DNA of 64,000 nt from an uncultured virus (IMG/VR IMGVR_UViG_3300037119_007256) (IMGVR_UViG_3300037119_007256), one strand, 5' to 3'. Numbered from the stretch's first letter, positions 5,556 through 33,276 are shown. Numbers and translations: made by a program. The notes: generated from the sequence alone by a model not told the origin.

Positions 5556-6971
5556 ATGCCGACCTACGCCGTGCCCGCGGACAAGTGCCCAGCGTTAACC
5601 TACAGGCAGACCAGGATACCGGCCACACCTGGGGTGCCGACGCTCGCGCCCACGCTGCCGGAAGGCGCGGTCGGCCAGCTTCGCCCCATGTTCAACCAAT
5701 TGGGCTGCTTCGCAGAGGGCGTGGCGGGGTATGGCGCCGGCGGATGGGGTGTTGTGGCGAATGTGGGCGGCGGCCTGCACCTCTACGACGGGGCCGTGGC
5801 CGGCAGTGTTAGCCTGTATGACGGGGATGCAATGATCGACGGCCCGGTGCGCCCGGTTTCGCTCGTTGCGCCGCTGGTCGACAACACATACAACTACCTC
5901 TGGCTCAACAAGAACGGGGCCTATATCGGTGACGCCTCGGCCGACCCCGACACCCCGCCCGCCCCGCCGGACGAGGACTGCGCTTACCTGGGGCGGGTGC
6001 ACATGACGGCTGGTGTGATCGCCGGGGTGGACGAGTCCGGGCGCATGGAGTTCCACGGCGGCCTCTCGGTCCGTCGCACCGGCGACGTTGGCATGCCCGC
6101 AGATTTCCCGCCGGCGCCCCTCGTGTTCTTCGCCCAGACGGCCGGCGGGTGGTACCTCTGGAACGGGGAGGAGTACCTGGCGGTCATCGACGACAAGACG
6201 GTCCGGGCCGACGCCGTGGATACCGGCGGCGGCGCCCTGGTCGACAAGCTGCTAACCGAAGGGGCCACCCTGACTGTTGTCGTGGACGGCGGCGTGCGCA
6301 AGGTGAGGGTTGCCGTGGCGCCTGTAGTACACTCTCTGCCGCCGTTCGACGTCACCCTGCCGCCCAATTCGGACAAGGTCGTCGAGGTCGACTTCTCGGC
6401 TACCGGGGCCTTCCCCACCCCGCACTATGCGGTGTCGGCCGCCATTGACCAGGGGCTGGATTCGACCATAGTCCACGAGGTGCCCGCCGGTAAGACGGGG
6501 TCCAAGGTGGTCCTCCACCTGGCGAACGTGGCGGTCCCGGCGGCCGGGGCTGTGGGCACCGGGACCGACGTCCGGGTGACGCTGACCCTGTACGGGTTCG
6601 GCTGGGTGCCAGCCAGTGGCGGCGGGGCCCACATCGTCACCGAACATGAGTTCTCCTACGCCGAGGAGTCGATCCACCTACCCGGAGCCATGACGGCAGA
6701 CTTCGCGGTGGACCCCGACACCAGAACCTACCTCCTGGACAACACCGCGGCGGACTGCATCGGGACACTGCCGGCGTCGGGGGTCGTCGGCGACTCGTAT
6801 CTATTCGTGGCCATCGGTTACTCCGGGTCCCACGTCATGGGGGTCGACCCTGCCGGGTCGGACACAATCGACGGGGTGGCCGCCGGGACGCCAATGACGT
6901 CGGCCCTGGACGTCGTCGAGGTCATGCGCGTCGGTGCCGCCGCCTGGCGCGTCGTGAGGAGGTTGCCGTGA
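5556..6971 (+). CDS. Putative tail fibre/baseplate protein
   Basis: GGAGG RBS before ATG; Gly/Val/Pro-rich beta sequence with a C-terminal TLPA...GSDTIDG fibre-type motif. Confidence 0.5.
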   Translation: MPTYAVPADKCPALTYRQTRIPATPGVPTLAPTLPEGAVGQLRPMFNQLGCFAEGVAGYGAGGWGVVANVGGGLHLYDGAVAGSVSLYDGDAMIDGPVRPVSLVAPLVDNTYNYLWLNKNGAYIGDASADPDTPPAPPDEDCAYLGRVHMTAGVIAGVDESGRMEFHGGLSVRRTGDVGMPADFPPAPLVFFAQTAGGWYLWNGEEYLAVIDDKTVRADAVDTGGGALVDKLLTEGATLTVVVDGGVRKVRVAVAPVVHSLPPFDVTLPPNSDKVVEVDFSATGAFPTPHYAVSAAIDQGLDSTIVHEVPAGKTGSKVVLHLANVAVPAAGAVGTGTDVRVTLTLYGFGWVPASGGGAHIVTEHEFSYAEESIHLPGAMTADFAVDPDTRTYLLDNTAADCIGTLPASGVVGDSYLFVAIGYSGSHVMGVDPAGSDTIDGVAAGTPMTSALDVVEVMRVGAAAWRVVRRLP

Positions 6972-8077
6972 GGAGGTTGGTCCACGTCGCCCCAAAGCCG
7001 CCGCCCGCCCCGCCCCGGGCGTCGGTCCCAGCGTTAGTAGTCGACGTCCTGGCGGCGTCGACCCTGCCCCACCTCGGCTACGGCCACTACGCCTTTGCCG
7101 TGGCCAGGGCCCTGCGCGCCGCCGGCGCCGACGTGCGCCTGCGCCACCTGCAGGACGGCGGGTCTGGAGCGCCATGGGCCATCCTCGTCGGGCCGCCAGG
7201 GGCGAGGGGCTACCCGCCTGGAGCCGTTGTCGCCCACTGTACCATGTGGGAGTCGGGGCGGCTGAGCCGGGAGCGGGTCGACGGCATGGCCGGAGCGAGC
7301 TTGGTGGTCGTGCCTTGCGAGTGGTGTGCGATCGTGTTCGACGCCTGTGGGGTGGCCCCGCCGATCGAGGTGGTCCCGATGGGGTACGACCAGGCGGTAT
7401 TTAGTCCACCCCGGCGGCGGGCGCCGCGGCCGCCAGGTCGGCCGTTCAAGGTCGGGTCCGCGGCGCGGGCGGCGCACGGGGGCCTGCGCAAGGGGCTGGA
7501 CGACGCCGTGGCCGCGTTCCAGGCCGCGTTTCCGGACGGCCGGGGCGCCGCGATGGAGGTCAAGGTATTCCCCGACGACCCGGCGCCGGAGCCGGGCGGC
7601 GGCGTGCAAGTTCTGCGTGGCGTGTGGCCCGAGCGGCACCTGGCCACCTGGTACCGGTCGCTGGACGTGTTCCTGTCTATGAGCCGCGGCGAGGGATTCG
7701 GGCTAATGCCGCTCCAGGCCATGGCTTGCGGGACGCCGGTTGTGGCGGTAGTGGCCGGTGGCCACGCCGAATACATGCGAGAGGGTGGGGCGGTCCCAGT
7801 TCCGTATACCCTGGAGCGGTCGGAGGAGGCCATGCCGGGCAACGGGTACTATGAGGGATTCTGGTTCCGCCCGGACGTCGACGCCGCGGCGCAGATACTC
7901 CGTATGTTGGCTGCCGAGGATGGCCTTAGGGCCGCCCTCGGGGAGGCGGCGGTGCGGGCGGCAGCGGCGTTTCAGTGGGCAGTTCACGACTCGCGACTGG
8001 CCGAGGTGCTGGCTCGGCATGGCTGGCCGGTGACGCCGCCACCGCCGGACCCGTATAGTTCCCCATACGGCCCCTAG
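6968..8077 (+). CDS. Glycosyltransferase, GT-B fold (GT4-like)
   Basis: RKGLD motif and EGFGLMPLQAMACGTPVV, a variant of the E-x7-E motif; GTGA overlap with the upstream gene. Confidence 0.85.
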   Translation: MRRLVHVAPKPPPAPPRASVPALVVDVLAASTLPHLGYGHYAFAVARALRAAGADVRLRHLQDGGSGAPWAILVGPPGARGYPPGAVVAHCTMWESGRLSRERVDGMAGASLVVVPCEWCAIVFDACGVAPPIEVVPMGYDQAVFSPPRRRAPRPPGRPFKVGSAARAAHGGLRKGLDDAVAAFQAAFPDGRGAAMEVKVFPDDPAPEPGGGVQVLRGVWPERHLATWYRSLDVFLSMSRGEGFGLMPLQAMACGTPVVAVVAGGHAEYMREGGAVPVPYTLERSEEAMPGNGYYEGFWFRPDVDAAAQILRMLAAEDGLRAALGEAAVRAAAAFQWAVHDSRLAEVLARHGWPVTPPPPDPYSSPYGP

Positions 8078-8628
8078 GACTTCGGCGGTCGTCGACCCGA
8101 CGCTGGGCGCCATCCAGAGTCCCTAGCCATCTTGCGGCCGCGGTAGAGCCTCTGGCGTACAGTGTTGACAGACAGGCCCCTGGCGGCGGCAATCTCCGAG
8201 TCGCGCATGCCGGCCACATAGAAGTCCAACATGACGGAGAGGTAGGGCTCGCGAAGGACGGCCAGGATGGCGACCGCCTCGACGGCGACTTCACGCCGCT
8301 CGAGCTCCGCGTCCGGCCCCAGGCATGGGTCCGCTGGGCCGTCCTCCCAGCCGTCCTCGAGCCGGACCTCCGGCGCCAGCGCCGCGCGGCGGGCCCGCCT
8401 GGCCGACCACTTGCCCAGCGTGGCGTAGGCGATCCTGAGGACCCAGGGCGTGGGGTCCGGGTAGGCGTCGTCGAACGAGCCGCGCGACAGCCAGACTCGG
8501 GTCATGGCGGCCTGCGCCACGTCCTCGGCGTCGTCGCGGGACAGCCTGGCGGTGCCGACCAGCCAGGTCATGATGCGGCGGCGCCACTGGGCCCACTCGG
8601 CCGGCGGCGCCGCCTCGATCCTATTCAC
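8074..8628 (-). CDS. ECF-type sigma-70 family RNA polymerase sigma factor
   Basis: Region 2 DAEDVAQAAMTRVW...WVLRIA and region 4 EIAAARGLSVNTVRQRLYRGR. Likely GTG start at 8628 overlaps the upstream TGA. Confidence 0.85.
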   Translation of the reverse strand: MNRIEAAPPAEWAQWRRRIMTWLVGTARLSRDDAEDVAQAAMTRVWLSRGSFDDAYPDPTPWVLRIAYATLGKWSARRARRAALAPEVRLEDGWEDGPADPCLGPDAELERREVAVEAVAILAVLREPYLSVMLDFYVAGMRDSEIAAARGLSVNTVRQRLYRGRKMARDSGWRPASGRRPPKS

Positions 8629-8897
8629 CGCCGGGGAACTCCCTCTCCATCCCCGACCTCCTCCCCGGCGGCCGCCCACTCGGCGACCGCCTCTTCGGCC
8701 TTCTGCTCGGCGCCGGCCGCCACCTGCCGCAGCTCCTCGAGGTGGCGAGAGCGCGCCCGCTGGAGCCGGAGGTTCAGGTCTGCGGCCTCGGCAGCCTCCT
8801 TCCCCTGGAGCCGCCTGGCCAGGCCCAGGCCCAGGAGCCTGAACTCCTGGGCCGTCACCTCCAGCACCAGCGTCGGGACCAGTCTCACGCCGGCCAT
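8625..8897 (-). CDS. Hypothetical helical protein (90 aa)
   Basis: TGATG coupling at 8895-8899; MAGVRLVPTL... Confidence 0.55.
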   Translation of the reverse strand: MAGVRLVPTLVLEVTAQEFRLLGLGLARRLQGKEAAEAADLNLRLQRARSRHLEELRQVAAGAEQKAEEAVAEWAAAGEEVGDGEGVPRR

Positions 8898-9487
8898 CAG
8901 CTTGCCGCCCTTCTGGCAGCCAGCCCGCGGGCCACCGTGTCCTGCACGTAGGTCAGGCGGCACCCGAACGCCGCCGCCATGTCCTTGCGACCAAGCCCCG
9001 CGTCGTGCCCCGCCATGATCGCCGCCCGCTTCTCGGCGGGCGTCAGGGCCGCGAACTCGGTCTTGTCCGGGTCTATCGCGACCAATGCGATCGCCGGCAC
9101 GATCGCCGGCACGATCGCCGGCTTGGCGGGCTTGGCCGCCTCAACTGCCGCGGCCATCTCCTCGACCGCCGCCGGCACGGACTTCTTGGCGGCCTTGGCC
9201 TTGGACTTCGCCACGTGCCTCATGAAAAGGGCCACGGCCGTGGGCCCAATCGGGTCCGCCGCGGCCAGCGCTTGGAGTGCCTCCACCACGCCATCGGCCG
9301 TGGGCTTCAGCTCGTCCGCCCCTTCGAAGGGCAGCCCGAGCTCCTCGCCCCACTTACTGCGGACGAAGAACTGGACGCCGTCGGGGTCGGGCTCGTCCTC
9401 CATCTGGAGGGAGAGGGCGGCCGCGTGGGCCGTTACGAAGGCCGCGATCTTCTCAGCGGCCAAACCATCAATTCTCACCACGCTCAT
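8897..9487 (-). CDS. Hypothetical protein with C-terminal HTH
   Basis: AGGAGA RBS then MSVVRIDG; C-terminal GLGRKDMAAAFGCRLTYVQDTV resembles an HTH. Confidence 0.55.
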   Translation of the reverse strand: MSVVRIDGLAAEKIAAFVTAHAAALSLQMEDEPDPDGVQFFVRSKWGEELGLPFEGADELKPTADGVVEALQALAAADPIGPTAVALFMRHVAKSKAKAAKKSVPAAVEEMAAAVEAAKPAKPAIVPAIVPAIALVAIDPDKTEFAALTPAEKRAAIMAGHDAGLGRKDMAAAFGCRLTYVQDTVARGLAARRAAS

Positions 9488-9494
9488 CTGGCTG

Positions 9495-9565
9495 TCTCCT
9501 GCCCGCGCTCGCGCGTCGGGCGGTCCTGGAGGGCGACCTTCTCGCCGCCCTCCATACTGATTATA
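9495..9565 (-). promoter_or_regulatory. -10 box (TATAAT) plus two-hairpin 5' leader and RBS
   Basis: Minus strand reads TATAAT-N6-hairpin-GGACC-hairpin-AGGAGA-N7-ATG. Confidence 0.55.
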
Positions 9566-9570
9566 CCCCG

Positions 9571-10080
9571 TCACCGCTGGGCTGCGTCATTTTCTTTCGG
9601 CGGCGCGACCACGGCACCCACCTGGATCTTCCAGGGCTTGCCATCGACCTTCACCACCAGGTTGTACCGTGTCCCGCGCTCCATCACGCGGACTAGCTCG
9701 GCGTTCCGCACGAGGCCGCGAAACCGCACCCTTAGCATATCGCCGACCTTGGCGCCGGCGAGGACCGTCCACCCCTCGGCGTCCGCGCCGCCCTTCCGCG
9801 CCATGTTCGTGGCCCAGAAGGCGTGCGTCGCCCGGCCGTTGACCGTCGGCGCCTGGGGCTTGCCGTCCTCCAACAGGCGTGCCAGTGCCGCCGGGTCTAC
9901 CTCCCCCAGCACGTAGGCCACCTTGTCGGCAGGGAAAATGTAGCGGGTGCACGCGCCCGTCAGCGGGGCGCCCGTGAACCGGTTCACCGGCTTGTGCGGA
10001 TTGTCCTCAATGACGACGAGGACGCCGGGGCTGATGCCGCGAGCCATCTTCACGATCGAGTGCAGTCTGGGTCCGTCCAT
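9571..10080 (-). CDS. Hypothetical protein
   Basis: AGGAGA RBS before MDGPRLHSIV; C-terminal SH3-like beta pattern. Confidence 0.6.
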   Translation of the reverse strand: MDGPRLHSIVKMARGISPGVLVVIEDNPHKPVNRFTGAPLTGACTRYIFPADKVAYVLGEVDPAALARLLEDGKPQAPTVNGRATHAFWATNMARKGGADAEGWTVLAGAKVGDMLRVRFRGLVRNAELVRVMERGTRYNLVVKVDGKPWKIQVGAVVAPPKENDAAQR

Positions 10081-10085
10081 CTCGT

Positions 10086-10157
10086 TCTCCTGCCCCGCGG
10101 CACTTTGTCCGCGGGGCGGTCCGGGGGCGGCCTGTCGCCGCCCCACACCTTATTATA
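10086..10157 (-). promoter_or_regulatory. -10 box (TATAAT) plus two-hairpin 5' leader and RBS (second copy)
   Basis: Same architecture as 9495-9565. Confidence 0.55.
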
Positions 10158-10590
10158 TCGCATCCAAGCGGGTGGTGGTCGCGATTATACGCTCGATCTT
10201 TGCCTCGAGCATGTCCGCCATCGTCTCCGCGCCCAAGGCCATTGCCTCGTCGACACTGACGGCGCGGGTGCGGAGGGCGTGCACCGCCGTGCGGGCGAGC
10301 GCCTCAAGCAGCAGCCCCTCACCCCGCAGCCACTCTTGCAGTGCCGCCTCTGTGCCTTCGAACAACACCATGGAGTAGGTGCCGTCCTTGTCGTATTCGA
10401 CGACACTGAAGCGGACATCGTCTTCCGCGGGCTCGTCCACCCACAGCAGCAGCCGCGGCGTCGCGCGGTCGTTGTGGAACCGCACTACGAACGAGGGGCA
10501 GGCGTCGTTGTGCCACGACACGTCCACATACCCCAGTTCGACCCACTTCGGCACCGCCCACTCGTCGCCGAACTCTGCAACCCAGCTCAT
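10153..10590 (-). CDS. Hypothetical protein
   Basis: GAGGTG RBS before MSWVAEFG; contains DVSWHNDACPSF. Confidence 0.6.
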   Translation of the reverse strand: MSWVAEFGDEWAVPKWVELGYVDVSWHNDACPSFVVRFHNDRATPRLLLWVDEPAEDDVRFSVVEYDKDGTYSMVLFEGTEAALQEWLRGEGLLLEALARTAVHALRTRAVSVDEAMALGAETMADMLEAKIERIIATTTRLDAI

Positions 10591-10641
10591 AGCATCACCT
10601 CTTTTAGGGACAGCCCTTGTGCCGCCCCTCATTTTATTTTA

Positions 10642-11064
10642 CTACCCTTCTGCGGGAATGGGTCCACTTTTCAAGAGTGGTTCCCAACCGCGGAAGTGGG
10701 TGTCCAGGTCAACCTGGACCAGGTCGCTGGACGGGGTCGACTCCCAGCGGCCCGCCGGGACAACATATACTGCGGCACCGTTCGGGTGGACCAGGGCCAC
10801 CAGGGCCAGTCCACCCTTGTTGGCCAGGGCCCAGAGCCAGGCCCGCTGATGCTGGGCGAATAGGCGCCAGGGTATCGGAGCGGAAGGATGCGGTGGCGGG
10901 GCGGCCTTGACCTCCAGGCCGACAGCCCGGCCGTCTGGGGCCGCCCCGCCGATGTCCCAGGGCCGCTTGCCGCCGTACGGCCCATCGGGGATGCGGTGCA
11001 GCAGCCAGCCCTCGGAGTTGGCCCCGTCGACCAGGGATAGGTATCGCGCTCGCTCGCCCCTCAC
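10642..11064 (-). CDS. RecU-like Holliday junction resolvase (PD-(D/E)xK)
   Basis: PWD...GLEVKA...HQRAWL...GGLALV; likely GTG start overlapping the upstream stop. Confidence 0.7.
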   Translation of the reverse strand: MRGERARYLSLVDGANSEGWLLHRIPDGPYGGKRPWDIGGAAPDGRAVGLEVKAAPPPHPSAPIPWRLFAQHQRAWLWALANKGGLALVALVHPNGAAVYVVPAGRWESTPSSDLVQVDLDTHFRGWEPLLKSGPIPAEG

Positions 11065-11972
11065 CTCTGGAGCCTCACCAGGTCCACCCATTGGCTCCAG
11101 TACTTAAAAAATGTTCCGCCGCGTTCCAACCGTGGCCAGAAGTACTTCCACGACATGCCGGATCGTGTATGCAACAGCATCGATTGGCAGAATATGTCAG
11201 CCTCGGCTGCAACTTCCTCCCACAGTGTATTGGCCGCTGGCCCCAAGCGGGGCAGCCTCAGCCCCACGACGAACTCCTCCTTGGGCAACGGGGCGATTAC
11301 CGGCTGCGTGGCCTCGTATACGTGGAGGCTACTAGCGTAGTGGTGGTACCGCCCCGGCTCCATCCCGAGGAGGTCGGCCGCCAGGCACTGGATCGCGCAG
11401 AACGCCGCCACATCGTATGGAGTGCCCCAGTTGAGGTCGTTGGACCGCATGACGGCGGTCATGGATAGGACAGCCACGCCGTCCGCCTCATCAGCATAGA
11501 GGTGAAGTGCCACCGTGCAGGGGACGTCGAGCGACGCGGTGAACCCCCCGGCGGTTTCGGGCCCCCAGATAGGGACGACCGCTCGCCTGGTGTCCGGGTC
11601 CGCCCTGAGCGCTGTGATGGCCGCCGGCATGGACCTGGCGAGGAGCGGGCCATAGGCCCCGTCAAAAGAGCGGGTCGCGGGGTTCACAAATGGCGCCATC
11701 TTGGAGTTGACTGCGGTCAATAGTTCGGCGTGGTCTGGCCCACCCCATCCGGCGATGTAGGATATGGCTTCCGCCACCCAGAACCGGTAGTTAAGGCGCC
11801 GCGAGGCACCCGTGTACAGACCGGCGGCGGCATTGGCGATTGTGAACGACCCAGGCCTTAGCTCAAGGCAGGGCAGCCCGCGCGGCCGGCGATGCTGGCC
11901 GTTGGCCATGACGTCGGCCACTAATGCGAAGTACAGCTCGTCCATCGACTCGGCGATCATTTCACCAGCCAC
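11061..11972 (-). CDS. Thymidylate synthase-fold pyrimidine nucleotide (hydroxy)methylase
   Basis: DTRRAV, catalytic PC (DVPCT), MRSNDLNWGTPYD and SLHVY motifs. Confidence 0.85.
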   Translation of the reverse strand: MAGEMIAESMDELYFALVADVMANGQHRRPRGLPCLELRPGSFTIANAAAGLYTGASRRLNYRFWVAEAISYIAGWGGPDHAELLTAVNSKMAPFVNPATRSFDGAYGPLLARSMPAAITALRADPDTRRAVVPIWGPETAGGFTASLDVPCTVALHLYADEADGVAVLSMTAVMRSNDLNWGTPYDVAAFCAIQCLAADLLGMEPGRYHHYASSLHVYEATQPVIAPLPKEEFVVGLRLPRLGPAANTLWEEVAAEADIFCQSMLLHTRSGMSWKYFWPRLERGGTFFKYWSQWVDLVRLQR

Positions 11973-12478
11973 AACGGCCCCTCCTCTTCCTCGTAGTTGT
12001 CATGTGATTGCCCAGCGGCGTCCGCGATCGCGAGTGCTGTGGCGTCCGGCGTGTACTCCACGGCTTCGAGTCCGACATGGTCGACGATGTAGGACCACAG
12101 GCCGGTATCGTTGCCGGCGAACGGCGGGTTGTCCGAGTAGAACACGATCCGCCGCACGCCGGCATTGGCCACAGGGCCGAGGCACCGGTGGCACGGCCTT
12201 ACGACACAGTAGAGGGTACCCCCACGTGGGTCGAACGGGCAATTCACCACGGCGTTGACCTCGGCATGCACGACCAGGTCGTACTTCCGCGGTCGCGCCC
12301 AATTCTCCGCCGTGTCCGGCACCCCGGTCGGCAGCCCGTTGTAGCCGACAGCCGACTGCCGGCCGTCGACCGACACGAGGACTGCCCCGACGCCGCGCTG
12401 CGGGTCCTTGGACATGTCCAGCCCCCGCACCAGGGCGACGTGCAGCCAGCTCCTATCCTGGGCCTCTACGCTGGGCAA
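11957..12478 (-). CDS. dCMP deaminase family protein
   Basis: SKDP..VGA, GYNG, HAEVNA and PCHRC zinc motifs; TTG start with AAGGAGG RBS. Confidence 0.9.
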   Translation of the reverse strand: MPSVEAQDRSWLHVALVRGLDMSKDPQRGVGAVLVSVDGRQSAVGYNGLPTGVPDTAENWARPRKYDLVVHAEVNAVVNCPFDPRGGTLYCVVRPCHRCLGPVANAGVRRIVFYSDNPPFAGNDTGLWSYIVDHVGLEAVEYTPDATALAIADAAGQSHDNYEEEEGPLWLVK

Positions 12479-13461
12479 GGTACGGCCTCCTTGGCGGCAT
12501 AGGTGCCGAGCGCCGCGCCGACCTCGGTGCACCAGTCGTCCTCGAGGTGGGGGCGAAACTGGCGGATATACATCGGGTGGTGAGCGTCGACGACCTGCAC
12601 GTCCGGCTCAAGCAGGCCTTCCCGCTGGGCGCGGGCGACCAGGTCCTGGGCCGGGTCCCCGAGCGCCAGGAGGAGGTGCGGCCGGATGTGCACGTTCACA
12701 TACCCGGCAAACTCCAGGGGCGACCTGAAGACGCTGGGCGACGTGTAGTAGCCGTTCCACCACTTGATCCCGGCCTGGTCGAGTGCCCTCCAGAAGAGCT
12801 TGGCGGCGGGTCCGCGGTCCATCGGCAACTGGGGGTCAAGGGACGGCCCGTGGAAGTCCGACGGTGCCTCCGCCAGGACCATGAACCCGCGGCCACCAGT
12901 CCAACCTGTGCCCAGCGAGGCCGGTAACAGCATGGCAGCGGCGTCGGCGTGCGCCTGCGCATGGGCCAGCAGGCCGAGCAGCGCCGGGGTCGGCCCGCCG
13001 TCCGGGTCCACCAGGTACGGCAGGGTGACGCGGATGGACGGCAGTCGGCTGGGCGGGTCGGCCCGCCCGTCGTGCAGCTCGTCGAACCGCTCGCACAAGG
13101 CAGCCAGCGGCTCCGGGCGGAACATCTCAGTGTCCGCCCACCTGGCGGCAATAGCGTCCGGGTCGTCGGTCATGAGGACAACCTGGGTCTTACGGCTCAG
13201 GGCCGCCAACTCGATCGCCCTCCACTCGTGCGCCGTCAGGTCAGGCTGGGACCGGTACGTACGCCCGTAGGCCGCCCCCGACCAGTGCAGGCGATCGACG
13301 ATCACTCGCGGGTGGGTGTCAGCCAGGAACCAGGTAAAGTACGGGTAGGCCGGGCATGGCGGTCGTGTGTGGTGCCTGTACGACCACCCCGGCGACAGGC
13401 GCCTCGCGAGTGCCGCCACGGTCGACTTGCCGCAGCGGTCGGGGCCCTCAATCAGTAGCAT
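12466..13461 (-). CDS. Thymidylate-kinase-like P-loop NMP kinase fused to a uracil-DNA-glycosylase-fold domain
   Basis: N-terminal IEGPDRCGKST and DR motif; C-terminal LAEAPS, LLALG..A and HHP motifs. Confidence 0.7.
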   Translation of the reverse strand: MLLIEGPDRCGKSTVAALARRLSPGWSYRHHTRPPCPAYPYFTWFLADTHPRVIVDRLHWSGAAYGRTYRSQPDLTAHEWRAIELAALSRKTQVVLMTDDPDAIAARWADTEMFRPEPLAALCERFDELHDGRADPPSRLPSIRVTLPYLVDPDGGPTPALLGLLAHAQAHADAAAMLLPASLGTGWTGGRGFMVLAEAPSDFHGPSLDPQLPMDRGPAAKLFWRALDQAGIKWWNGYYTSPSVFRSPLEFAGYVNVHIRPHLLLALGDPAQDLVARAQREGLLEPDVQVVDAHHPMYIRQFRPHLEDDWCTEVGAALGTYAAKEAVPCPA

Positions 13462-13464
13462 GGC

Positions 13465-13911
13465 TCAGTATTTCCCTTCGTCCTGTCTTGCATGGTTCAC
13501 ACCGACCTTTTCGGTGTGATACGCGTTCAACTCCGCCGCACCCATGCCGAGCCACATGGCCGTATTGACCAGGAAGCACAGCAGGTCCGCCACCTCAACG
13601 CGCATTTCGTAGAGGTGCTCCTCGGTCCACGGCTCGATACCCTCTGGCCCTTTGTCCGCCTTGTTGCCGAGCGACTGGGACCAGTGCTTCCATGGCACCC
13701 AGTCTCGCAGTTCGGCCGCCTCCTGTGTGATACAGGTGGCGTAAGTGTCGATCGCCTGCGTGATACGGGCAGCATCCTCCTCGCTCAGCGACCCGTCTGT
13801 CGCCAGGCGATCCCAGTCGGTGCCGATCGGGTGCCCTAACCCGGCGCCGCCGATCCGCGCCGCGAACTCCGCCTGCCGGCGGAATACCGCCTCCAGCATG
13901 TCCTCTGCCAT
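13465..13911 (-). CDS. All-alpha NTP pyrophosphatase (dimeric dUTPase/dCTPase family)
   Basis: EAAEL..WVPWKHW, EVADLLCF and KVGVNHARQ motifs; start MAEDML after GGAGG. Confidence 0.8.
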   Translation of the reverse strand: MAEDMLEAVFRRQAEFAARIGGAGLGHPIGTDWDRLATDGSLSEEDAARITQAIDTYATCITQEAAELRDWVPWKHWSQSLGNKADKGPEGIEPWTEEHLYEMRVEVADLLCFLVNTAMWLGMGAAELNAYHTEKVGVNHARQDEGKY

Positions 13912-13922
13912 ATATCCCTCCG

Positions 13923-13948
13923 CAGGCGGGGCCGCTGGGCCCCGCCTG
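13923..13948. other. 11-bp perfect hairpin in an intergenic gap
   Basis: CAGGCGGGGCC-gctg-GGCCCCGCCTG with no U-tract. Confidence 0.5.
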
Positions 13949-13958
13949 TCGCCGCACC

Positions 13959-15023
13959 CTACTCGATGATGTGCGCTCCGCACGCGGTGGCCAGCGGCCG
14001 CGGGAGGCGGGCCGTCACCAGGTCGAAGTCCTCCACCCACGAGCCGCCCGCCCTCTGCAGGCGGCGGCCCAGCCTCGCGTCGGGCCCGTGGGTGCCGAAC
14101 CGCGTGATGGCGTTCAGCAGGTCCCACTCCGTGTCGCCGCCGCCCTCCTGCTCGAAGGCCTCGACCAGGGCGGGCATGTAGCGCTCGTGGATCCGCAGCG
14201 CCCGCGCCCGCTCGCGCAGGGCTTCGCGCCAGTCGCCCTCGAACCTGGCGCTCGCCATCTCCCGTGCCTTGGTGACCAGGTCGTCGTACGCCGTCAGCGC
14301 CTCGGCCACCCCGAGCCGCACCCAGTGGAGCTGGTCTTCGCGGCTGCCGTAGAGCTGGCGGCTCCACTCGAACTGGCGGCTCGAGGACACCATGCCGTTG
14401 GTGCAGACGAGCCGCTGGGCATAGAGGGACACGTCCAGCTCGACGCCGTAGCGGTGGACCACTTCGACGCCCATGCGGAGGACGTCGCCGACTTTGGGGG
14501 TGACGGGGTCCTGCCGCATCGTCAGGAGGCGGACGCGCATGCCGCCGGGCTCCGTGGCCGCCATGTCGACCTCGGGGGTGCCGCCGACGCCCTCGGCGAC
14601 CGCGTTGTCCACGACCTGTGCCACCAGCCTGTGGGGCAACACGCCCCGCCAGGAGGGCATGATGTTGGACACTGCGCCCGACTCCACGGCGAACCCGAAT
14701 TCCTGATCGCGAGCAGCGCGGACGCGGTCGTTGATAACCCGCGCCTGGAGCTCGGGGTCCGACAGCTTCATGACAAAGTCCACGGGGAAGCCGACCCTCG
14801 TCGACAGCTCCCGCAGGCAGTGGGAGTTCGCGCGGCCGATCGTCTCATGTCCACCCTCGCCGTCCTCGCGCCTTAGCTCGAGGTGATGGCCGCCGCCGGC
14901 GACCGCCAGGTCGACCGCTTGTAGCCGTGCAGTGAAGAGGTTGCACTCGTCCCAGCCTGCCCATGGTCTGGTGGGGTCTATCGCGGTCTCGAGAATGCTG
15001 TTCTGCTCTTGCATTTGTTCCAT
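13959..15023 (-). CDS. DUF932-like protein
   Basis: RLVCTNG motif and C-terminal WDLLNAIT; AAGGAGG RBS before MEQMQEQ. Confidence 0.7.
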   Translation of the reverse strand: MEQMQEQNSILETAIDPTRPWAGWDECNLFTARLQAVDLAVAGGGHHLELRREDGEGGHETIGRANSHCLRELSTRVGFPVDFVMKLSDPELQARVINDRVRAARDQEFGFAVESGAVSNIMPSWRGVLPHRLVAQVVDNAVAEGVGGTPEVDMAATEPGGMRVRLLTMRQDPVTPKVGDVLRMGVEVVHRYGVELDVSLYAQRLVCTNGMVSSSRQFEWSRQLYGSREDQLHWVRLGVAEALTAYDDLVTKAREMASARFEGDWREALRERARALRIHERYMPALVEAFEQEGGGDTEWDLLNAITRFGTHGPDARLGRRLQRAGGSWVEDFDLVTARLPRPLATACGAHIIE

Positions 15024-15074
15024 CGCGGACCTCCTTGGTCCCGTCGGCGGGGAGTATGTTTTCCCTGCCACCTA

Positions 15075-15116
15075 ATGATACCACGTCGGGGCCCCAGGTG
15101 TAAACTTAATTCCCGC
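15075..15116 (-). promoter_or_regulatory. Promoter of the recurring early class
   Basis: GCGGGAATTAAGTTTACA-N18-TATCAT with an extended -10 TG. Confidence 0.6.
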
Positions 15117-15123
15117 GATCTCC

Positions 15124-15957
15124 TCACGGGGTCATCCCGGACGTAGGTCCCGTTAGGGCCGCCAGGAGCCCCTCACCCTCGGCTCGGCCCACCTCGCAGC
15201 CTTTCCGCATCGGGCAGAACCGGCAGCCGGCGCCGGCGGTCCGCGGCCAATGGCCAGCCGCCCGGTGAGCCTGGACTGCCCCATCGGCGGCCCGGACCCG
15301 AGCCACAAACTCGGTCTCGGCGCTGGGCGGGACCTCCCACTCGACGAGGATTCCCATGTTAACGTAGCCCACGCGGTACCACACCCGCGCGCCCGGCCAC
15401 CGCCGGCGGGCCCACCAGGAGTATCCCAGCGGCTGGATGTCCCGGGACCACTCGGCCACCCCCTTCGGGTCTCGCCTGTCCGTCTTGTGGTCGACCAGTA
15501 GGATAGTTCCGCTTCGGTCAAATGCACAGTCGACGTGGCCGACTATCTCCGGGCCGCCCGGCCACGTTTCCTCGCGGAACTCGGCCTCGACGGCCAGCGG
15601 CGGGCCGAGCGGCGCCAGGGTATCCACATAGTAGTCGACGGCCGCGGCCGCCTCCCGCGGCGGCACGCCGGCCCTGACCATGGCGACCGCCTCCGCCGCC
15701 AGGTCGGGAGAGGTGGCTCGTAGCATCCGCTCCAGCGAGGCGTGGACGGCGTCGCCGATGCGTGATGCCCGACTCGTGGTCCGCGGGGCACCACGCTCGT
15801 AGGAGTGCGCCCACAGGTCGGGGCACTGCTCCAGCATCCGGAGGGCCGTCACCCGGAACCCGTACCGCTCCTCCTGGGGGCGAGGCGGGGTGGGGGGAAT
15901 GGCCGCGTCCCGAGCCGGTCCCGGCTCCATCGTGCCGCGCGCCAGCCTGGCCATCAT
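15124..15957 (-). CDS. PD-(D/E)xK RecB/Cas4-like exonuclease
   Basis: CP..., IGDAVH, GHVD, VDHKT and C-terminal CRFCP...C cluster; ATGA overlap at 15954-15957. Confidence 0.8.
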   Translation of the reverse strand: MMARLARGTMEPGPARDAAIPPTPPRPQEERYGFRVTALRMLEQCPDLWAHSYERGAPRTTSRASRIGDAVHASLERMLRATSPDLAAEAVAMVRAGVPPREAAAAVDYYVDTLAPLGPPLAVEAEFREETWPGGPEIVGHVDCAFDRSGTILLVDHKTDRRDPKGVAEWSRDIQPLGYSWWARRRWPGARVWYRVGYVNMGILVEWEVPPSAETEFVARVRAADGAVQAHRAAGHWPRTAGAGCRFCPMRKGCEVGRAEGEGLLAALTGPTSGMTP

Positions 15958-17051
15958 GACAACCCCGCCACAACGGCCAGCCGGGCGGCGGCCCAGGACG
16001 CATTCTGCACTGGTACGCCCTGCCCGACGAACAGTGGGTTGGGCTTCGAGAAGGCCCAGTCCAGCGGGTAGCCCATCAGTGACGCCATCTCTCTCATGGT
16101 CAGCATCCTGTCCTCGTAGGGGTGCACGAAAATGTACTCCCCAATCATTGTGGGCCCGGCCCGGTCTGGGGCTATCACCTTCGGTCGCTTGAACTCCTGC
16201 CCGAAGTCCAGCACCGGCGGGCAGTTCGGCCACAGCCGCTCCCTGGCCCGCTCTATGGCGCCGACAGACCTCTGGTTCAAAGCTACCATCCCTTCGAGCT
16301 GGGCCATGAGCTTGGGTGGGACGTAACGCTGGGCGATTCTCCATCGATTCCCGCGCAGGGCCTCGTTCACCCGGTCTATCCGCGGGGAGTTGTAGCAGTG
16401 CATGCCGACCTCCGTTCCATCCGCAATAGTCACCGGGTGGCGCGACGGCGCTATGCCGAATGTTGGGGCCAGCCAGGGCCAGGACGGAGCGTTGTCTTTG
16501 CCCAGCCCCTCCAGGTCCCCGAGTCCGATCAGGTCCGGCTCGGCGGGCGGGTCGAGGGTGGCACAAACAAAGCACCGGCGTCGGTTCTGGGGGGTGCCAA
16601 CCTGGTAGGAATAGAACTCCCAAGTCCACCTGGCGGCGTACCCGGCGGCGTCCAGGACATTGTAGACGTCCGCCAGTAGCCGCGTCATGAGCGGCCTGGC
16701 CAGCTGGTAGCCGGACTCCATCAGGACAACCCTGGGGCGGGCACGAGCCACCATCCGCACCCAGTGCCGCATCTGGTCGTTCGTGTCGCTGTCCAGCTTG
16801 GAGCCGGTCATGGCCGATACGCCGCCGCACGGCGGGTTGCCGTATACCATGTCCGCTCCGGCCGGGATGGCGGCGGAGGCGGAGTCCAGCTCCACGACCT
16901 TATGCCGGGTGCCGGGGCGGTTGAGGTCCCAACAGAAGGCGTTGACCGCGTACGGCGGCGTTTCCCACACCTGCGCTACCCTGAACCCGGCTCGCTCCAC
17001 CCCGACCGACATGGAGCCGGCCCCGACGAGGAAACCCACAGCGTCCATCAA
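15954..17051 (-). CDS. DNA cytosine-C5 methyltransferase (divergent)
   Basis: Motif I GAG, catalytic PPC, motif VIII PQNRRR and motif IX/X RMLTMRE...GQGVP. Confidence 0.8.
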   Translation of the reverse strand: MMDAVGFLVGAGSMSVGVERAGFRVAQVWETPPYAVNAFCWDLNRPGTRHKVVELDSASAAIPAGADMVYGNPPCGGVSAMTGSKLDSDTNDQMRHWVRMVARARPRVVLMESGYQLARPLMTRLLADVYNVLDAAGYAARWTWEFYSYQVGTPQNRRRCFVCATLDPPAEPDLIGLGDLEGLGKDNAPSWPWLAPTFGIAPSRHPVTIADGTEVGMHCYNSPRIDRVNEALRGNRWRIAQRYVPPKLMAQLEGMVALNQRSVGAIERARERLWPNCPPVLDFGQEFKRPKVIAPDRAGPTMIGEYIFVHPYEDRMLTMREMASLMGYPLDWAFSKPNPLFVGQGVPVQNASWAAARLAVVAGLS

Positions 17052-20435: not shown

Positions 20436-21028
20436 CACCCCTCCTTGGAGAACTTTGTAGTCCAGACCACCCCACGCTGGGCACACTTGGCCACAGCCGC
20501 GACCATCTTGCCATAACGCTCAGCCGTGGCCCGGTCGGAGGCCACCCTGGCTTCGGACCGGCGCCGCCACAGAGGACAGGCAGTTTCTGTGGCTTGAACG
20601 CCAACTCTACCAGAACTTGAGAATAAGGCACACTCGCCGCAAGCGAGCGTCACCTGCCCGGCCCCGCCGAACTCGATGTGGGCGCACCCCCCGCATGTCT
20701 GGTTGGCCAGGGACTCTGGCGGAGCCTTCCGTCGACGTGCGACCTTGTCGGGGTTGCGATTCGCCCGGGGAGGTGCCATCGTTGCCGGGTCGACCGCTAT
20801 CTCCTGCCCGGCAAGAGCGAACACCCCCTTGCCCAGGAGGACGAAAGGTGACTGGTCGCCCCTGGTGCGGATATCCTTGTGGAGCTGGAAGTAGACCATT
20901 GCCCCGGGCTCGGTCCGTCCGCGGGGCACCCAGTACTTTCCTTCGATCATCACGCCGGCGAGCGTTTTATAGTGCAGTGGTCCCAACTGCTGGAGCACCT
21001 GCCTGGCCGCCTCAGCGCACTCATGCAC
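20435..21028 (-). CDS. HARE-HTH-like winged-helix protein with Cys-rich C-terminus
   Basis: EAARQVL...PLHY...GRT.P...F...GKGVFAL followed by CGGC...CGEC...C. Confidence 0.65.
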   Translation of the reverse strand: MHECAEAARQVLQQLGPLHYKTLAGVMIEGKYWVPRGRTEPGAMVYFQLHKDIRTRGDQSPFVLLGKGVFALAGQEIAVDPATMAPPRANRNPDKVARRRKAPPESLANQTCGGCAHIEFGGAGQVTLACGECALFSSSGRVGVQATETACPLWRRRSEARVASDRATAERYGKMVAAVAKCAQRGVVWTTKFSKEG

Positions 21029-32163: not shown

Positions 32164-33276
32164 CTACGGGGAGGCTGTGGGGAGCTCCCAGGCCTCGGCT
32201 CCGTCGTAGGCGGGGATGGTTGGCCCGCGGGGCTCCCAGGAGCGAGGGGCGGCCGATGGGGCGTACCTGCCTTTGGTTGCTCCGCCCGCCTTTGCCCGGA
32301 CATACTTTTGCATTTCGCACAAAGCGTGCTCCACATCGACCACGCTCATGTGGACCCGCCCTCCGTCGCGACGGGTGATGGCCGGCGGCTCCACCCCGGC
32401 TGCGGCGCACTGCTCGGGGCCCAACTCAGCTAGGGCCACCATCGCGGCGGGGACGTCCCGTCTGGGGACGCCGAGCAGGGCCGCGCCTTTGTAGGCCCCT
32501 GGCCCGGGGAGGGCCCAGTTGCTCCGAAGCAGCGCTCGGCCGTCGATCAGCGTCGGGTGCGTCCAGTCTGCCGCCATCTGCCACGCCAGGAAGTCGCCGA
32601 TGCCGGGCAGGCGCTTGAGCCGGACGACCACGACCTGCGGTCGGACCTCGGCGATGAGGGCGGCGACGCCCGGGGCCGCGGCGACGAGGCTCTCGACCAC
32701 CAGCGCCGCGTCACGCTCTTTGTCGCCGCCTGTGCCCATGTCCGGGCAGTAGGTGGCGATATATGCTCCAGTGTAGAGCTTTTCGCCTTGGTAGCGGCGG
32801 TCCTTGAGGACGGCGTAGACCAGGTCCGCGATGTTTGGGCGGCCTGGGGTAAAGGCGCCGGCGGACCGTAAGTGCTGATGGGTTGGGATGTTGTTGAACC
32901 ACCTGTAGACCAGCTGCTCCGCCACCCGGGACTGGAGCGAGGCAGGTGTCTCCATCACTTCGGCCACAACGAACTGCGTACCGCGATCCAGCGCCCGGAA
33001 CACGTTGGTGAACTTGACATTGGCCAGGACCGGATCATTGGTCCAGGGAGGAGGGCCTGCTTGCTTGGCCTGTCGTAGGGCATCCCTGGCGGCGCAGAAA
33101 GTCCAGAAGGGGCTAGGGTCTCCCCAGGCCCATTTCTGGAGCGTGGGCGAGCCCGTGGTCATCCTGGGGGTGTTTTCTGCCCCGGGCAGGGATAGTTGAA
33201 TCGCCGGCGCGCGAGGGGCCAATTCGGCGGGGGAGGGCCGGGTCGGTGCCCCGGCCCTCCACAGCGGGTTGGCCAC
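32164..33276 (-). CDS. aGPT-Pplase1 / 5-hydroxymethyluracil-DNA-kinase-like protein (HhH fold)
   Basis: PPWTNDPVL...FTNVFRALDR, YRWFN, HhH-like LPGIGDFLAWQ, PGPGA..G and EHALCEMQKY motifs. Confidence 0.8.
   Translation of the reverse strand: MANPLWRAGAPTRPSPAELAPRAPAIQLSLPGAENTPRMTTGSPTLQKWAWGDPSPFWTFCAARDALRQAKQAGPPPWTNDPVLANVKFTNVFRALDRGTQFVVAEVMETPASLQSRVAEQLVYRWFNNIPTHQHLRSAGAFTPGRPNIADLVYAVLKDRRYQGEKLYTGAYIATYCPDMGTGGDKERDAALVVESLVAAAPGVAALIAEVRPQVVVVRLKRLPGIGDFLAWQMAADWTHPTLIDGRALLRSNWALPGPGAYKGAALLGVPRRDVPAAMVALAELGPEQCAAAGVEPPAITRRDGGRVHMSVVDVEHALCEMQKYVRAKAGGATKGRYAPSAAPRSWEPRGPTIPAYDGAEAWELPTASP

Follow-up and report, generated by a model that had tools for sequence, protein, structure and literature searches.

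Genes of the locus and its surroundings

The window, a stretch of 64,000 nucleotides from an uncultured virus (IMG/VR IMGVR_UViG_3300037119_007256), contains four genes that a sequence-only reading had described as coupled, encoding an all-alpha dNTPase (P0001), an NMP kinase fused to a UDG fold (P0002), a dCMP deaminase (P0003) and a ThyA-fold enzyme (P0004). Typing by Pfam, Foldseek and BLASTP bears this description out. All four genes are on the minus strand, where that reading had placed them (Table 1), with P0001 and P0002 separated by 3 nt and the junctions that follow overlapping by 67, 16 and 31 nt; P0003 overlaps both flanking genes, P0002 and P0004. GC3 in the called frames is 0.79-0.88, compared with 0.53 upstream of the P0001 start, and P0001 (GC3 0.80) has the ribosome-binding site GGAGGG.

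The transcription unit is likely to be wider than these four genes, and a DUF932-like gene probably heads it. A promoter-like site precedes that gene, and downstream of it the minus strand showed no terminator-like site within the scanned interval 10000-15500, both searches being consensus matches only. Homologues of the RecU-like protein come after the module in the related loci L002 and L004; Pfam RecU matches the L004 homologue at 2.3e-4, below cut-off. In L002, the entire order DUF932, NTP-PPase, kinase-UDG, deaminase, ThyA-like, RecU-like is present at about 42% protein identity to the window genes and a GC content of 54%; the arrangement is therefore not a product of chance.

The DnaE of its own that had been attributed to the genome is confirmed. 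The GT4 gene is located where the tail module ends, outside the operon, has weak PDB matches (6kih, 3c4q/3c4v) and has homologues in 46 Streptomyces phage records; its product is possibly a DNA or virion glycosyltransferase. The source of the window is a high-GC tailed phage, probably of actinobacteria.

Table 1. Features of the window discussed in the text
Feature	Position	Strand	Evidence or remark
GT4-family GT-B glycosyltransferase (candidate)	6968..8077	+	Pfam Glyco_trans_1_4 1e-12; GT4-conflict 1.5e-9
RecU-like PD-(D/E)XK protein	10642..11091	-	overlaps P0004 3' end
P0004, ThyA-fold enzyme, predicted dCMP 5-hydroxymethylase	11061..11972	-	Pfam Thymidylat_synt 4.5e-15
P0003, dCMP-family zinc deaminase	11957..12532	-	start uncertain; GTG at 12532 gives a 67-nt overlap with P0002
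P0002, YorR/TMPK-like P-loop nucleotide kinase (~1-150) and family-4-like UDG fold (~176-322)	12466..13461	-	AF2, Foldseek, profile
P0001, all-alpha NTP pyrophosphohydrolase, dimeric-dUTPase/T4 gp56 type, predicted dCTPase/dUTPase	13465..13911	-	Pfam, PHROGs, BLASTP
DUF932-like gene	13959..15071	-	Pfam DUF932 2.7e-4, below cut-off; 42% identical homologue, same position in L002
Promoter-like site	15104-15075	-	consensus match only
C5-cytosine DNA methyltransferase	15954..17051	-	Pfam DNA_methylase 1.3e-20
DnaE	17331-20486		confirmed
P0005, stand-alone PF18723 protein	32164..33276	-	Pfam 4.3e-47, 161.2 bits (cut-off 25)

Predicted functions of the operon enzymes

The best PDB match of P0004 is the CMP hydroxymethylase MilA (2.4e-15). 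When aligned and numbered after E. coli ThyA, its residues 143, 146, 147, 165, 169 and 177 read D, C, T, M, D and D, identical to T4 gp42. Aspartate thus stands where E. coli ThyA has Asn177 (here within GTPYDVAAF) and Leu143, Cys146 and Asp169 are kept, and the catalytic core (C146, R166/S167, H207/Y209) is complete in alignment with both E. coli ThyA and T4 gp42. P0004 agrees with gp42 at 10 of the 12 active-site residues within 6 A of C5 (set of Lee 2026). It differs from gp42 at W80 and residue 142; SP10 and ZC01 share its Met at position 80. According to Lee 2026 (PMC13326640), N177D in ThyA homologues denotes dCMP, L143D/E hydroxymethyl and D169N 5-hydroxy. By these diagnostic residue rules, which are correlative, Asp177, Asp143 and the retained Asp169 predict a dCMP hydroxymethylase, and the earlier view of the synthase as cytosine-specific holds: P0004 is predicted to be a cytosine-type enzyme that makes 5hm-dCMP. 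As Asp169 is not replaced by Asn, the D169N signature of 5-hydroxy-dCMP synthases (RB69 gp48 type) is absent. The dUMP hydroxymethylases of SP10, Nachito and ZC01 have N147, N165 and N177.

P0001 matches Pfam dUTPase_2 (2.1e-5, 25.3 bits, cut-off 22.9), phrog_173 and phrog_18650, and T4 gp56 by BLASTP (1e-8 over 73 residues). P0003 matches dCMP_cyt_deam_1 (PF00383; 1.2e-14, 54.5 bits, cut-off 25), contains both zinc motifs, HAE (VHAEVNA) and PCxxC (RPCHRC), and finds human DCTD (9.1e-17), the PBCV-1 dCMP/dCTP deaminase 7fh4 (7.1e-16) and T4 Cd (4.9e-6) in the PDB. It is 49% identical to gp62 of Stenotrophomonas phage AXL1, the gene of which adjoins a ThyA homologue and DHFR. The operon is less atypical than had been claimed, as the combination of Asp-type ThyA homologue, in-cis dCMP-family deaminase and all-alpha NTP pyrophosphohydrolase is already reported as a hallmark of modified-cytosine phage contigs in a preprint (10.1101/2024.12.05.627091), where in-cis deaminases and NTP-PPases accompany Asp-type ThyA homologues (104/149 vs 17/277). 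Among those contigs, Xp12, PaMx74 and mSCD-B5 resemble the window in having an Asp177 ThyA homologue, such a deaminase and a pyrophosphohydrolase, which is a PRA-PH there; the window relatives L002 and L004 also have PRA-PH at the P0001 position, and the deaminase type is the same. However, the characterised contigs make 5mdCMP, and P0004 has the Asp143 hydroxymethylase signature.

The AF2 model of P0002 (pLDDT 87.9, pTM 0.88) has two domains, the first of which matches YorR (3kb2, 2.8e-7) and the second UdgX (6io9, 2e-4) in Foldseek; relatives of P0002 carry PF02223 and PF03167. Pfam Thymidylate_kin (PF02223) covers only residues 4-35, the P-loop region, with 20.5 bits against a cut-off of 27, and exceeds the cut-off in the L004 homologue (35.7 bits). 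Since this match is sub-threshold but the kinase family profile (A1) finds SPbeta YorR in the PDB at 9e-15, we class P0002 as YorR/TMPK-like and not as a bona fide Tmk. PF18748, the 5-hmdU DNA kinase, does not match P0002 at E<=0.1, and no sequence match to the SP10-type DNA base kinase emerged, hhalign of A1 with the Nachito kinase giving a probability of 9% over the P-loop only.

Of 14 loci with relatives of the kinase, fused or stand-alone, nine have a ThyA-like gene next to the kinase gene. All eight classifiable neighbours have Asp177, with Asp143 in seven and Leu143 in one (L009), and a deaminase is present in cis in four of the eight. The uniform Asp177 type agrees better with a modified-dCMP kinase like T4 gp1 than with a DNA base kinase. 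In phage DLP3, too, a YorR-like 'nucleotide kinase' adjoins a cytosine-type ThyA homologue (Lee 2026, PMC13326640). Fusions of TMPK-like kinases to PF18723 do exist (P0022, P0024, P0025), with a kinase that aligns to A1 at an hhalign probability of 95.8%, so a DNA-kinase role is conceivable; a PF18723-like domain is absent from all 152 kinase relatives examined. In G003, a complete relative, the NTP-PPase, the kinase-UDG fusion and the deaminase are all retained, but no ThyA-like gene, PF18723 or Tet_JBP was found, which indicates that the fusion is not specific to hmC.

The second domain of P0002 is assigned to the UDG fold on matches to UdgX entries at E values of 2e-4 to 1e-3 and TM scores (target) of 0.44-0.51, and 73 of the 152 relatives share the fusion. 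Family 4 UDGs have motif A (GE.PG), a uracil-recognising Asn, motif B (HP) and a four-cysteine Fe-S cluster. The motif positions are well populated in the family (G 65/74, E/D 70/74, N 60/74, H 66/74, P 71/74). At these places the window copy has AEAPS, TS and HHP, departing at the motif-A Gly (G197A) and the conserved Asn (N241S), and its sequence has two Cys after residue 170 instead of the four of an Fe-S cluster. The attachment of the kinase to a DNA-directed fold was counted against a pathway of mononucleotide supply.

The PF18723 protein and known modification systems

P0005, 19 kb from the operon and on the same strand, was correctly recognised in the sequence-only reading as an aGPT-Pplase1 gene; it also matches phrog_2396 (1.7e-45). 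PF18723, the former aGPT-Pplase1, is now named "5-hmdU DNA kinase helical domain" (HMUDK_hel), and it is also matched, at 1.7e-49, by a phage record that bears the annotation 'aGPT-pyrophosphorylase clade 1'. The claim that this gene belongs to a DNA kinase family does not stand, and P0005 was rejected as a kinase: PF18723 is the helical domain, and the kinase domain is PF18748, to which it is fused in SP10 gp186 (our searches; Lee 2018, Table 3). The 52 larger window ORFs that were scanned contained neither PF18748 nor the PF18724 transferase, and they likewise gave no PLP enzyme, radical SAM enzyme or DHFR. An aGPT-Pplase1 lacking a detectable 5-HMUDK has been noted before (PMC13697223). Invariant residues of the PF18723 family include C320 and E321 (EHALCE-like motif), and Cys-Glu is reported as the catalytic pair of clade 2 transferases in Lee 2021.

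PF18723 relatives adjoin uracil-type hydroxymethylases in 34 of the 39 loci that have a ThyA-like gene, so the presence of P0005 pulls toward hmU. The combination with a cytosine-type enzyme is seen again in L037, in L053 and in Carostasia, a Microbacterium phage; a deaminase is found in cis in both cytosine-type loci surveyed (L037, L053), compared with 4 of 34 uracil-type loci. Besides PF18723 and the deaminase, L053 encodes both a canonical ThyA and a DCTMDD-type enzyme, a set that follows the logic of T4 td, 42 and cd, with thymine kept and cytosine modified.

Of the known systems, the hmC precursor pathway of T4 (gp56, gp42, gp1, Cd) has all four functions predicted here, and the make-phosphorylate-purge logic proposed earlier for this operon fits it. 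P0004 shares the gp42 signature, and P0001 is similar in sequence to gp56. In contrast to T4, the genes form one compact four-gene operon, the kinase, which is joined to the UDG fold, resembles YorR/TMPK instead of gp1, the deaminase is DCTD/PBCV-1-like, and the polymerase is DnaE-type. No alpha- or beta-glucosyltransferase of T4 type was seen in the window, which has PF18723 and a C5 methyltransferase. The thymidine hypermodification systems of M6, PaMx11, ViI, PhiW-14 and SP10 comprise a dUMP hydroxymethylase, 5-HMUDK, aGPT-Pplase1/PF18723 and AADT/PF18724. The window has PF18723 in common with them, and its predicted ThyA-fold hydroxymethylase belongs to the same broad clade, but the enzyme is cytosine-type and PF18723 is distant from the operon; with Asp177 and neither PF18748 nor PF18724 among the scanned ORFs, the window falls outside these systems as defined by Lee (2018, 2021).

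The 5-hydroxycytosine arabinosylation of DLP3 and RB69 offers a cytosine-type ThyA homologue (best solved match MilA), a YorR-like kinase, a dCTPase and GT4-like GT-B glycosyltransferases, which act on DNA (Lee 2026, PMC13326640). P0004, however, keeps Asp169, and the window's GT4 gene is not in the operon. SPO1- and SP15-like phages with modified pyrimidines also fuse a family-4-like UDG in cis (PMC13697223), there to a polymerase and here to a nucleotide kinase, and the window copy differs in its Ser and Ala at the conserved Asn and the motif-A Gly.

The proposed pathway and its alternatives

Taken together, our data moderately favour a model in which the operon provides 5-hydroxymethyl-dCTP much as T4 does. 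P0001 would hydrolyze dCTP (and dUTP) to the monophosphate in the manner of gp56, and P0004 would hydroxymethylate dCMP at C5 with methylene-tetrahydrofolate. The kinase domain of P0002 would then phosphorylate hm-dCMP, a step that host kinases perform poorly and for which T4 uses gp1, and hmC would then enter DNA through the NDP kinase of the host and the DnaE of the phage. P0003 would divert some of the dCMP/dCTP pool to dU and dT nucleotides, like T4 Cd, and the task of the fused UDG fold is most likely to excise uracil, or a related deaminated base, from DNA synthesised while the pools are skewed. We infer all substrates and products, and hmC in virion DNA, from family and fold assignments, diagnostic residues, conserved synteny and genomic associations, which are the direct basis of the pathway. 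Further observations count against it: P0004 differs from gp42 at W80 and residue 142, the C5 DNA methyltransferase would be without substrate if hmC fully replaced C, and P0003 is nearer to the DCTD/PBCV-1 enzyme than to T4 Cd, and such enzymes can deaminate 5-substituted dC nucleotides.

The latter property would be used in a new route to hmU, in which P0003 deaminates the hm-dCMP made by P0004, or hm-dCTP, the product is phosphorylated and replaces some or all thymine, and PF18723 acts on hmU. We consider this unlikely, even though PF18723 relatives mostly sit by uracil-type hydroxymethylases, both surveyed cytosine-type PF18723 loci have the deaminase, P0003 overlaps both of its neighbours, and 7 of 90 deaminases from Asp-type contexts yielded 5hmdU from 5hmdC nucleotides in vivo (10.1101/2024.12.05.627091). 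All seven stem from 5mC-type contexts in that study, and the association of PF18723 with deaminases is confounded, since Asp-type ThyA homologues often have a deaminase in cis whether or not PF18723 is present, both there and in our kinase loci. Moreover, the canonical ThyA of L053 argues for thymine retention, no dTTP-excluding function was identified, and a one-residue switch to a dUMP hydroxymethylase would be more direct than this detour. Between the two outcomes offered in the sequence-only reading, deamination of hm-dCMP to hm-dUMP or a derivatised hmC, the evidence leans toward hmC. Somewhat less probable again is a cytosine analogue of thymidine hypermodification, in which the kinase-UDG protein flips and phosphorylates hmC in DNA, and PF18723 derivatises the product or phospho-hmC stays. 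A base-flipping fold with conserved pocket motifs fused to a kinase in nearly half of the relatives speaks for it, as do the verified SP10 DNA kinase, which also joins a kinase to a DNA-glycosylase-like domain, the TMPK-like kinase-PF18723 fusions, the resemblance of the invariant Cys-Glu to the clade 2 catalytic pair and the cytosine-type company of PF18723 in L037, L053 and Carostasia. However, it leaves the window without a candidate hm-dCMP kinase, and even stand-alone kinase relatives directly adjoin ThyA-like genes, as fits a mononucleotide kinase; it also has to accommodate the lack of PF18723-like domains among the 152 relatives, the gene content of G003 and the lack of PF18724 in the scanned ORFs.

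In an XP12-like 5mC system, P0004 would methylate dCMP and P0003 would turn part of the 5-methyl-dC nucleotides into dT nucleotides. Five of seven tested Asp177-type enzymes with in-cis deaminase are verified 5mdCMP synthases (10.1101/2024.12.05.627091), and the AXL1 relative of P0003 has ThyA and DHFR neighbours; nevertheless, we regard this as very unlikely, since position 143 of P0004 is Asp and not bulky hydrophobic, the sole Leu143/Asp177 enzyme of our sample (L009) looks different, no DHFR was found in the scanned window ORFs, and the best solved relative of P0004 is a hydroxymethylase. We give least credence to pool management only, that is, dNTP rebalancing and uracil repair, with virion DNA canonical except for motif-specific 5mC from the methyltransferase. 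The encoded C5 methyltransferase and the three genes that G003 retains without a ThyA-like gene would agree with it, but canonical dNTP synthesis is not known to involve any ThyA-fold enzyme that has Asp177, Asp143 and an intact catalytic Cys, and PF18723 is present as well.

If the operon supplies 5-hydroxymethyl-dCTP, this need not be the end of the pathway. P0005, perhaps with the GT4 glycosyltransferase, probably acts later on the hydroxymethyl base in DNA, and the kinase-UDG fusion and the PF18723 protein hint at further DNA decoration. More speculatively, and with rather low confidence, we suggest that this phage, L037, L053 and the Microbacterium phages of Carostasia type may represent a previously undescribed branch of C5-hydroxymethylpyrimidine hypermodification that works on cytosine, where 5hmC from the operon would be derivatised in DNA by the Cys-Glu PF18723 protein, and the kinase-UDG protein may be a second, structurally new DNA base kinase that relies on base flipping by its UDG fold.

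Operon layout and the ThyA-fold enzyme

The window belongs to a tailed phage of high GC content (60-71%), with large terminase, portal and tape measure genes on the plus strand and a long replication and nucleotide module on the minus strand, running from ~34.8 kb down to 8 kb. The operon lies inside this module. The four genes of the sequence-only reading are present at the coordinates it assigned, and their types are borne out by profile, fold and motif matches. Neighbouring genes are separated by a 3-nt gap or overlap by 16-67 nt, and the called frames are backed by codon-position GC. The DUF932 gene at 15071 has upstream of it a promoter-like site and, ahead of that, a terminator-like hairpin (both are consensus matches only); the transcription unit therefore probably also takes in this gene and the downstream RecU-like gene. 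A viral contig of 54% GC (L002) has the identical gene order at ~42% identity, so the arrangement is conserved and not a chance juxtaposition. The nearest virus record, G001, does not contain the operon part since it is a 50 kb fragment; this near-identical record was the only one returned when related loci were searched with P0005, the PF18723 protein of the window, alone.

Coordinates of features in the window and of loci in related records
Feature	Coordinates	Strand	Remarks
P0001, all-alpha dNTPase	13465-13911	-	above Pfam dUTPase_2 cut-off; T4 gp56 (dCTPase/dUTPase) aligned at 1e-8
P0002, kinase-UDG fusion	12466-13461	-	kinase and UDG-fold domains
P0003, deaminase	11957-12532	-	dCMP family, both zinc motifs present
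P0004, ThyA-fold enzyme	11061-11972	-	best solved relative is CMP hydroxymethylase MilA
P0005, PF18723 protein	32164-33276	-	matches PF18723 at 4.3e-47
C5-cytosine DNA methyltransferase	15954-17051	-	same module as operon
Cas4-like PD-(D/E)XK exonuclease	15124-16020	-	just upstream of operon
GT4 glycosyltransferase	6968-8077		end of tail module
Primase-helicase ORF	23342-26254	-	970 aa
Large terminase ORF	36142-38649	+	835 aa
Tis1-domain ORF	52524-54398	+	624 aa, structural region
Giant ORF	55342-63999	+	>2885 aa, runs off window end
L024 locus (Stenotrophomonas phage AXL1)	8291-11426
L037 locus (68% GC)	9956-16915		~7 kb
L017 locus (Brevibacterium phage LuckyBarnes)	4834-8849		overlapping genes
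L036 ThyA-like gene	11485-12453		beside PF18723
L004/G003 locus	8379-13814		on a contig of 41% GC, CheckV 100% complete

For ThyA-fold enzymes (E. coli ThyA numbering), Lee et al. 2026 (PMC13326640) give N177D as diagnostic of a dCMP substrate, L143D/E as accompanying hydroxymethyl rather than methyl products, and D169N as the mark of flavin-dependent 5-hydroxy-dCMP synthases. In our alignment, P0004 carries D143, C146, T147, M165, D169 and D177, and it agrees with T4 gp42 at 10 of the 12 residues around C5 listed in the same source, differing at W80 and residue 142. The alignment gives L143, H147, Q165 and N177 for E. coli ThyA, N147, N165 and N177 for the dUMP hydroxymethylases of SP10, Nachito and ZC01, and N147, I165 and N177 for the LuckyBarnes enzyme. 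Because its signature matches both the residue rules and T4 gp42, P0004 is predicted to be a cytosine-type hydroxymethylase; with D177 and a gp42-like active site, the earlier description of the synthase as cytosine-specific is upheld. A 5hoC synthase (RB69-type hydroxylase) is not predicted, and was rejected on the alignment, as D169 is kept.

The nearest relatives of the deaminase P0003 are human DCTD and the dCMP/dCTP deaminase of PBCV-1, and P0003 shares 49% identity with the deaminase of phage AXL1, which sits in a cluster with a ThyA homologue, PRA-PH and DHFR. The AXL1 locus consists of an HhH-GPD (ENDO3c) gene, a PRA-PH pyrophosphohydrolase, the ThyA homologue (N143, D177), the deaminase and DHFR, and thus again has a DNA-glycosylase-fold gene alongside a cytosine-type nucleotide cluster. 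According to the preprint 10.1101/2024.12.05.627091, a dCMP-family deaminase and a thymidylate synthase homologue are co-located in 104 of 149 contigs with modified cytosine vs 17 of 277 unmodified ones; these homologues are mostly cytosine-type, and PRA-PH is a frequent neighbour. The operon had been called atypical, a label that is weakened, as the gene association is already described in that source.

Other ORFs of the window deserve brief mention. The large terminase ORF has a LAGLIDADG_3 match mid-protein (residues 283-345) and terminase similarity split into N- and C-terminal parts, which suggests a putative intein or homing-endonuclease insertion. In the primase-helicase ORF, a DnaG-type zinc ribbon and similarity to primases are joined to a P-loop helicase domain of the MCM type. 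The sole Pfam match of the giant ORF is NUDIX, near its N-terminus (residues 140-247), and the ORF in the structural region matches a Tis1 immunity protein domain N-terminally (3.8e-14).

The kinase-UDG fusion

P0002 is confidently predicted to fold into two packed domains (pLDDT 87.9, pTM 0.88). Structure searches match the N-terminal domain to the SPbeta kinase-like protein YorR and to thymidylate/deoxynucleoside kinases, and the C-terminal domain to UdgX, a family-4-type UDG. A profile of nine family members finds YorR at 9e-15 and has weak matches (0.05) to UdgX-type chains. The P-loop region EGPDRCGKST and a DRxxWS motif match thymidylate-kinase models weakly; the homologue in L004 scores above the thymidylate-kinase cut-off. 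Likeness to the SP10-type 5-hmdU DNA kinase is confined to the P-loop, and a 5-HMUDK identity of P0002 was rejected.

Searching residues 1-150 against 1.84 billion representatives yielded 296 kinase relatives at E<=1e-3. The 152 examined with our own HMMs comprise 73 kinase-UDG fusions, 68 short stand-alone kinases and 11 longer proteins in which no UDG domain was detectable; none of the 152 has a PF18723-like domain. A tblastn search of phage records with P0002 gave no match. In 9 of the 14 viral loci found with the kinase profile, a number that includes near-duplicates (L003/L004/L005, L006/L007, L011/L012, L013/L015) and so exceeds the independent count, a ThyA-like gene adjoins the kinase, mostly overlapping it. 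All eight classifiable ThyA-like enzymes have Asp177, seven with Asp143 and one (L009) with Leu143. A YorR-like "nucleotide kinase" likewise adjoins a cytosine-type ThyA homologue in the characterised phage DLP3 (Lee 2026, PMC13326640). Since the kinase relatives adjoin Asp177-type homologues, this context is what would be expected of an enzyme that phosphorylates modified dCMP, the job of T4 gp1.

Over 74 fusion proteins, the UDG pocket motifs are largely kept (Gly 65/74, Glu/Asp 70/74, Asn 60/74, His 66/74, Pro 71/74); P0002 itself deviates at two positions, with Ala and Ser. It has only two cysteines beyond residue 170 and therefore lacks the four-Cys cluster. In phages with modified pyrimidines, UDG domains that are fused in cis to replication enzymes have been read as uracil repair (PMC13697223), and the default role of the P0002 domain would be the removal of uracil or a deaminated base. 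Carostasia gp43 was rejected as a split UDG half (hhalign probability 0.5%).

G003, a complete related virus of 97.7 kb, has genes for a deaminase, a PRA-PH pyrophosphohydrolase and a kinase-UDG fusion that is degenerate, and its whole record is without a ThyA-like gene and without PF18723; the fusion is therefore not confined to hydroxymethylating phages. The UDG motifs of the kinase-UDG homologue at the L004/G003 locus are degenerate; after this gene come a DHH/DHHA1-like phosphoesterase and then the deaminase.

PF18723 and the company it keeps

The gene reported earlier as aGPT-Pplase1 is a PF18723 member, a family now named "5-hmdU DNA kinase, helical domain"; the model also recognises a phage record that carries the annotation "aGPT-pyrophosphorylase clade 1". 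That part of the sequence-only reading stands, but its assignment to a DNA kinase family does not. SP10 gp186, a verified 5-hmdU DNA kinase (Lee 2018 Table 3; Lee 2021 Table 1), is a fusion of PF18748 and PF18723, so PF18723 is the helical partner and not the kinase. Neither PF18748 nor PF18724 had a match in the 52 window ORFs scanned. The P0005 subfamily has an invariant Cys-Glu, reminiscent of the Cys and Glu that were shown to be catalytic in clade 2 transferases (Lee 2021). Between the PF18723 profile and the ZC01 ADDT, E..LC motifs align, a correspondence that is suggestive only (hhalign probability 4%, not significant). The database proteins P0022, P0024 and P0025 (538-579 aa) fuse a thymidylate-kinase-like domain (PF02223) to PF18723; this form occurs in no phage record, none covering at least 80% of P0024.

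Of 515 PF18723-relative loci confirmed in IMG/VR, the best 80 were surveyed, and 39 of these contain a ThyA-like gene: 34 encode uracil-type hydroxymethylases, two (L037, L053) cytosine-type enzymes with exactly the signature of the window, and one each a DCTMDN enzyme, a canonical enzyme only and a partial one. A deaminase is present in 2/2 cytosine-type vs 4/34 uracil-type loci of this sample, although the numbers are small and confounded. L037 brings PF18723 together with a YorR-like kinase and the DCTMDD enzyme, and also has genes for a deaminase and a family A polymerase. L053 has a canonical ThyA besides its DCTMDD-type enzyme, deaminase and PF18723; the set mirrors T4 td, 42 and cd, and the added canonical ThyA argues that thymine would be retained and cytosine would be the modified base. 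The ThyA-like gene of L036 has a mixed signature, cytosine-type at D143, T147 and M165 but with N177. Among cultured actinophages, Microbacterium phage Carostasia has PF18723 together with a D143/D177 enzyme, and also encodes a YorR-like kinase (hhalign probability 83%), a TAGT glycosyltransferase and a MazG-like enzyme; in LuckyBarnes, an N177 enzyme is accompanied by two TAGTs and by PF18723. The LuckyBarnes genes lie in that order, the first encoding a 517-aa uracil-type protein with a long C-terminal extension.

What the operon may do

Together, our data speak, on balance, for a T4-like supply of 5hm-dCTP, the best of the readings considered and one we hold to be somewhat more probable than its rivals combined. 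Complete replacement of cytosine is argued against by the C5-cytosine DNA methyltransferase in the same module. This gene overlaps the start of the Cas4-like exonuclease gene, and L007 has a weak methyltransferase match beside a T4-type ThyA homologue. The GT4 gene has, by weak matches, its nearest solved relatives in common with the DNA arabinosyltransferases of DLP3 and RB69.

A deaminative route, in which hm-dCMP would be converted to hm-dUMP and lead to hmU, has biochemical precedent, since 7 of 90 dCMP-family deaminases of the co-located kind turned 5hmdC nucleotides into 5hmdU in vivo; the contexts of all seven are predicted to be 5mC ones, and the proposal made there is that dTTP is synthesised from 5mdCTP (10.1101/2024.12.05.627091). 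We consider this route unlikely here. Hypermodification on the cytosine branch, with the fusion acting as a DNA kinase, is less likely again; a base-flipping fold fused to a kinase makes a DNA-directed role possible. An Xp12-like 5mC system is decidedly improbable, and the signature of P0004 does not predict an Xp12-type methylase. The least weight of all falls on pool management only.

For the preferred T4-like reading, T4 provides the precedent for the pathway logic and 10.1101/2024.12.05.627091 that for the gene association. New are the lineage, the architecture of the kinase-UDG fusion and the pairing of a cytosine-type enzyme with PF18723. A literature search, with most subscription journals outside its coverage, turned up no paper dealing with hmC in actinophages or with kinase-UDG fusions, nor a description of that pairing in work on aGPT-Pplases and cytosine hypermodification. 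The nucleotide-kinase-UDG fusions are now defined as a sizeable family, with at least 73 cluster representatives, and are tied to cytosine-type ThyA homologues by gene context. The recurrence of PF18723 with cytosine-type hydroxymethylases makes clade 1 aGPT-Pplase activity testable on hmC as well as hmU. If the prediction is true, a high-GC, DnaE-encoding actinophage lineage would have a hydroxymethylcytosine-type genome, and such modifications bear on restriction and CRISPR evasion, on sequencing bias and on enzyme sources for epigenetic sequencing.
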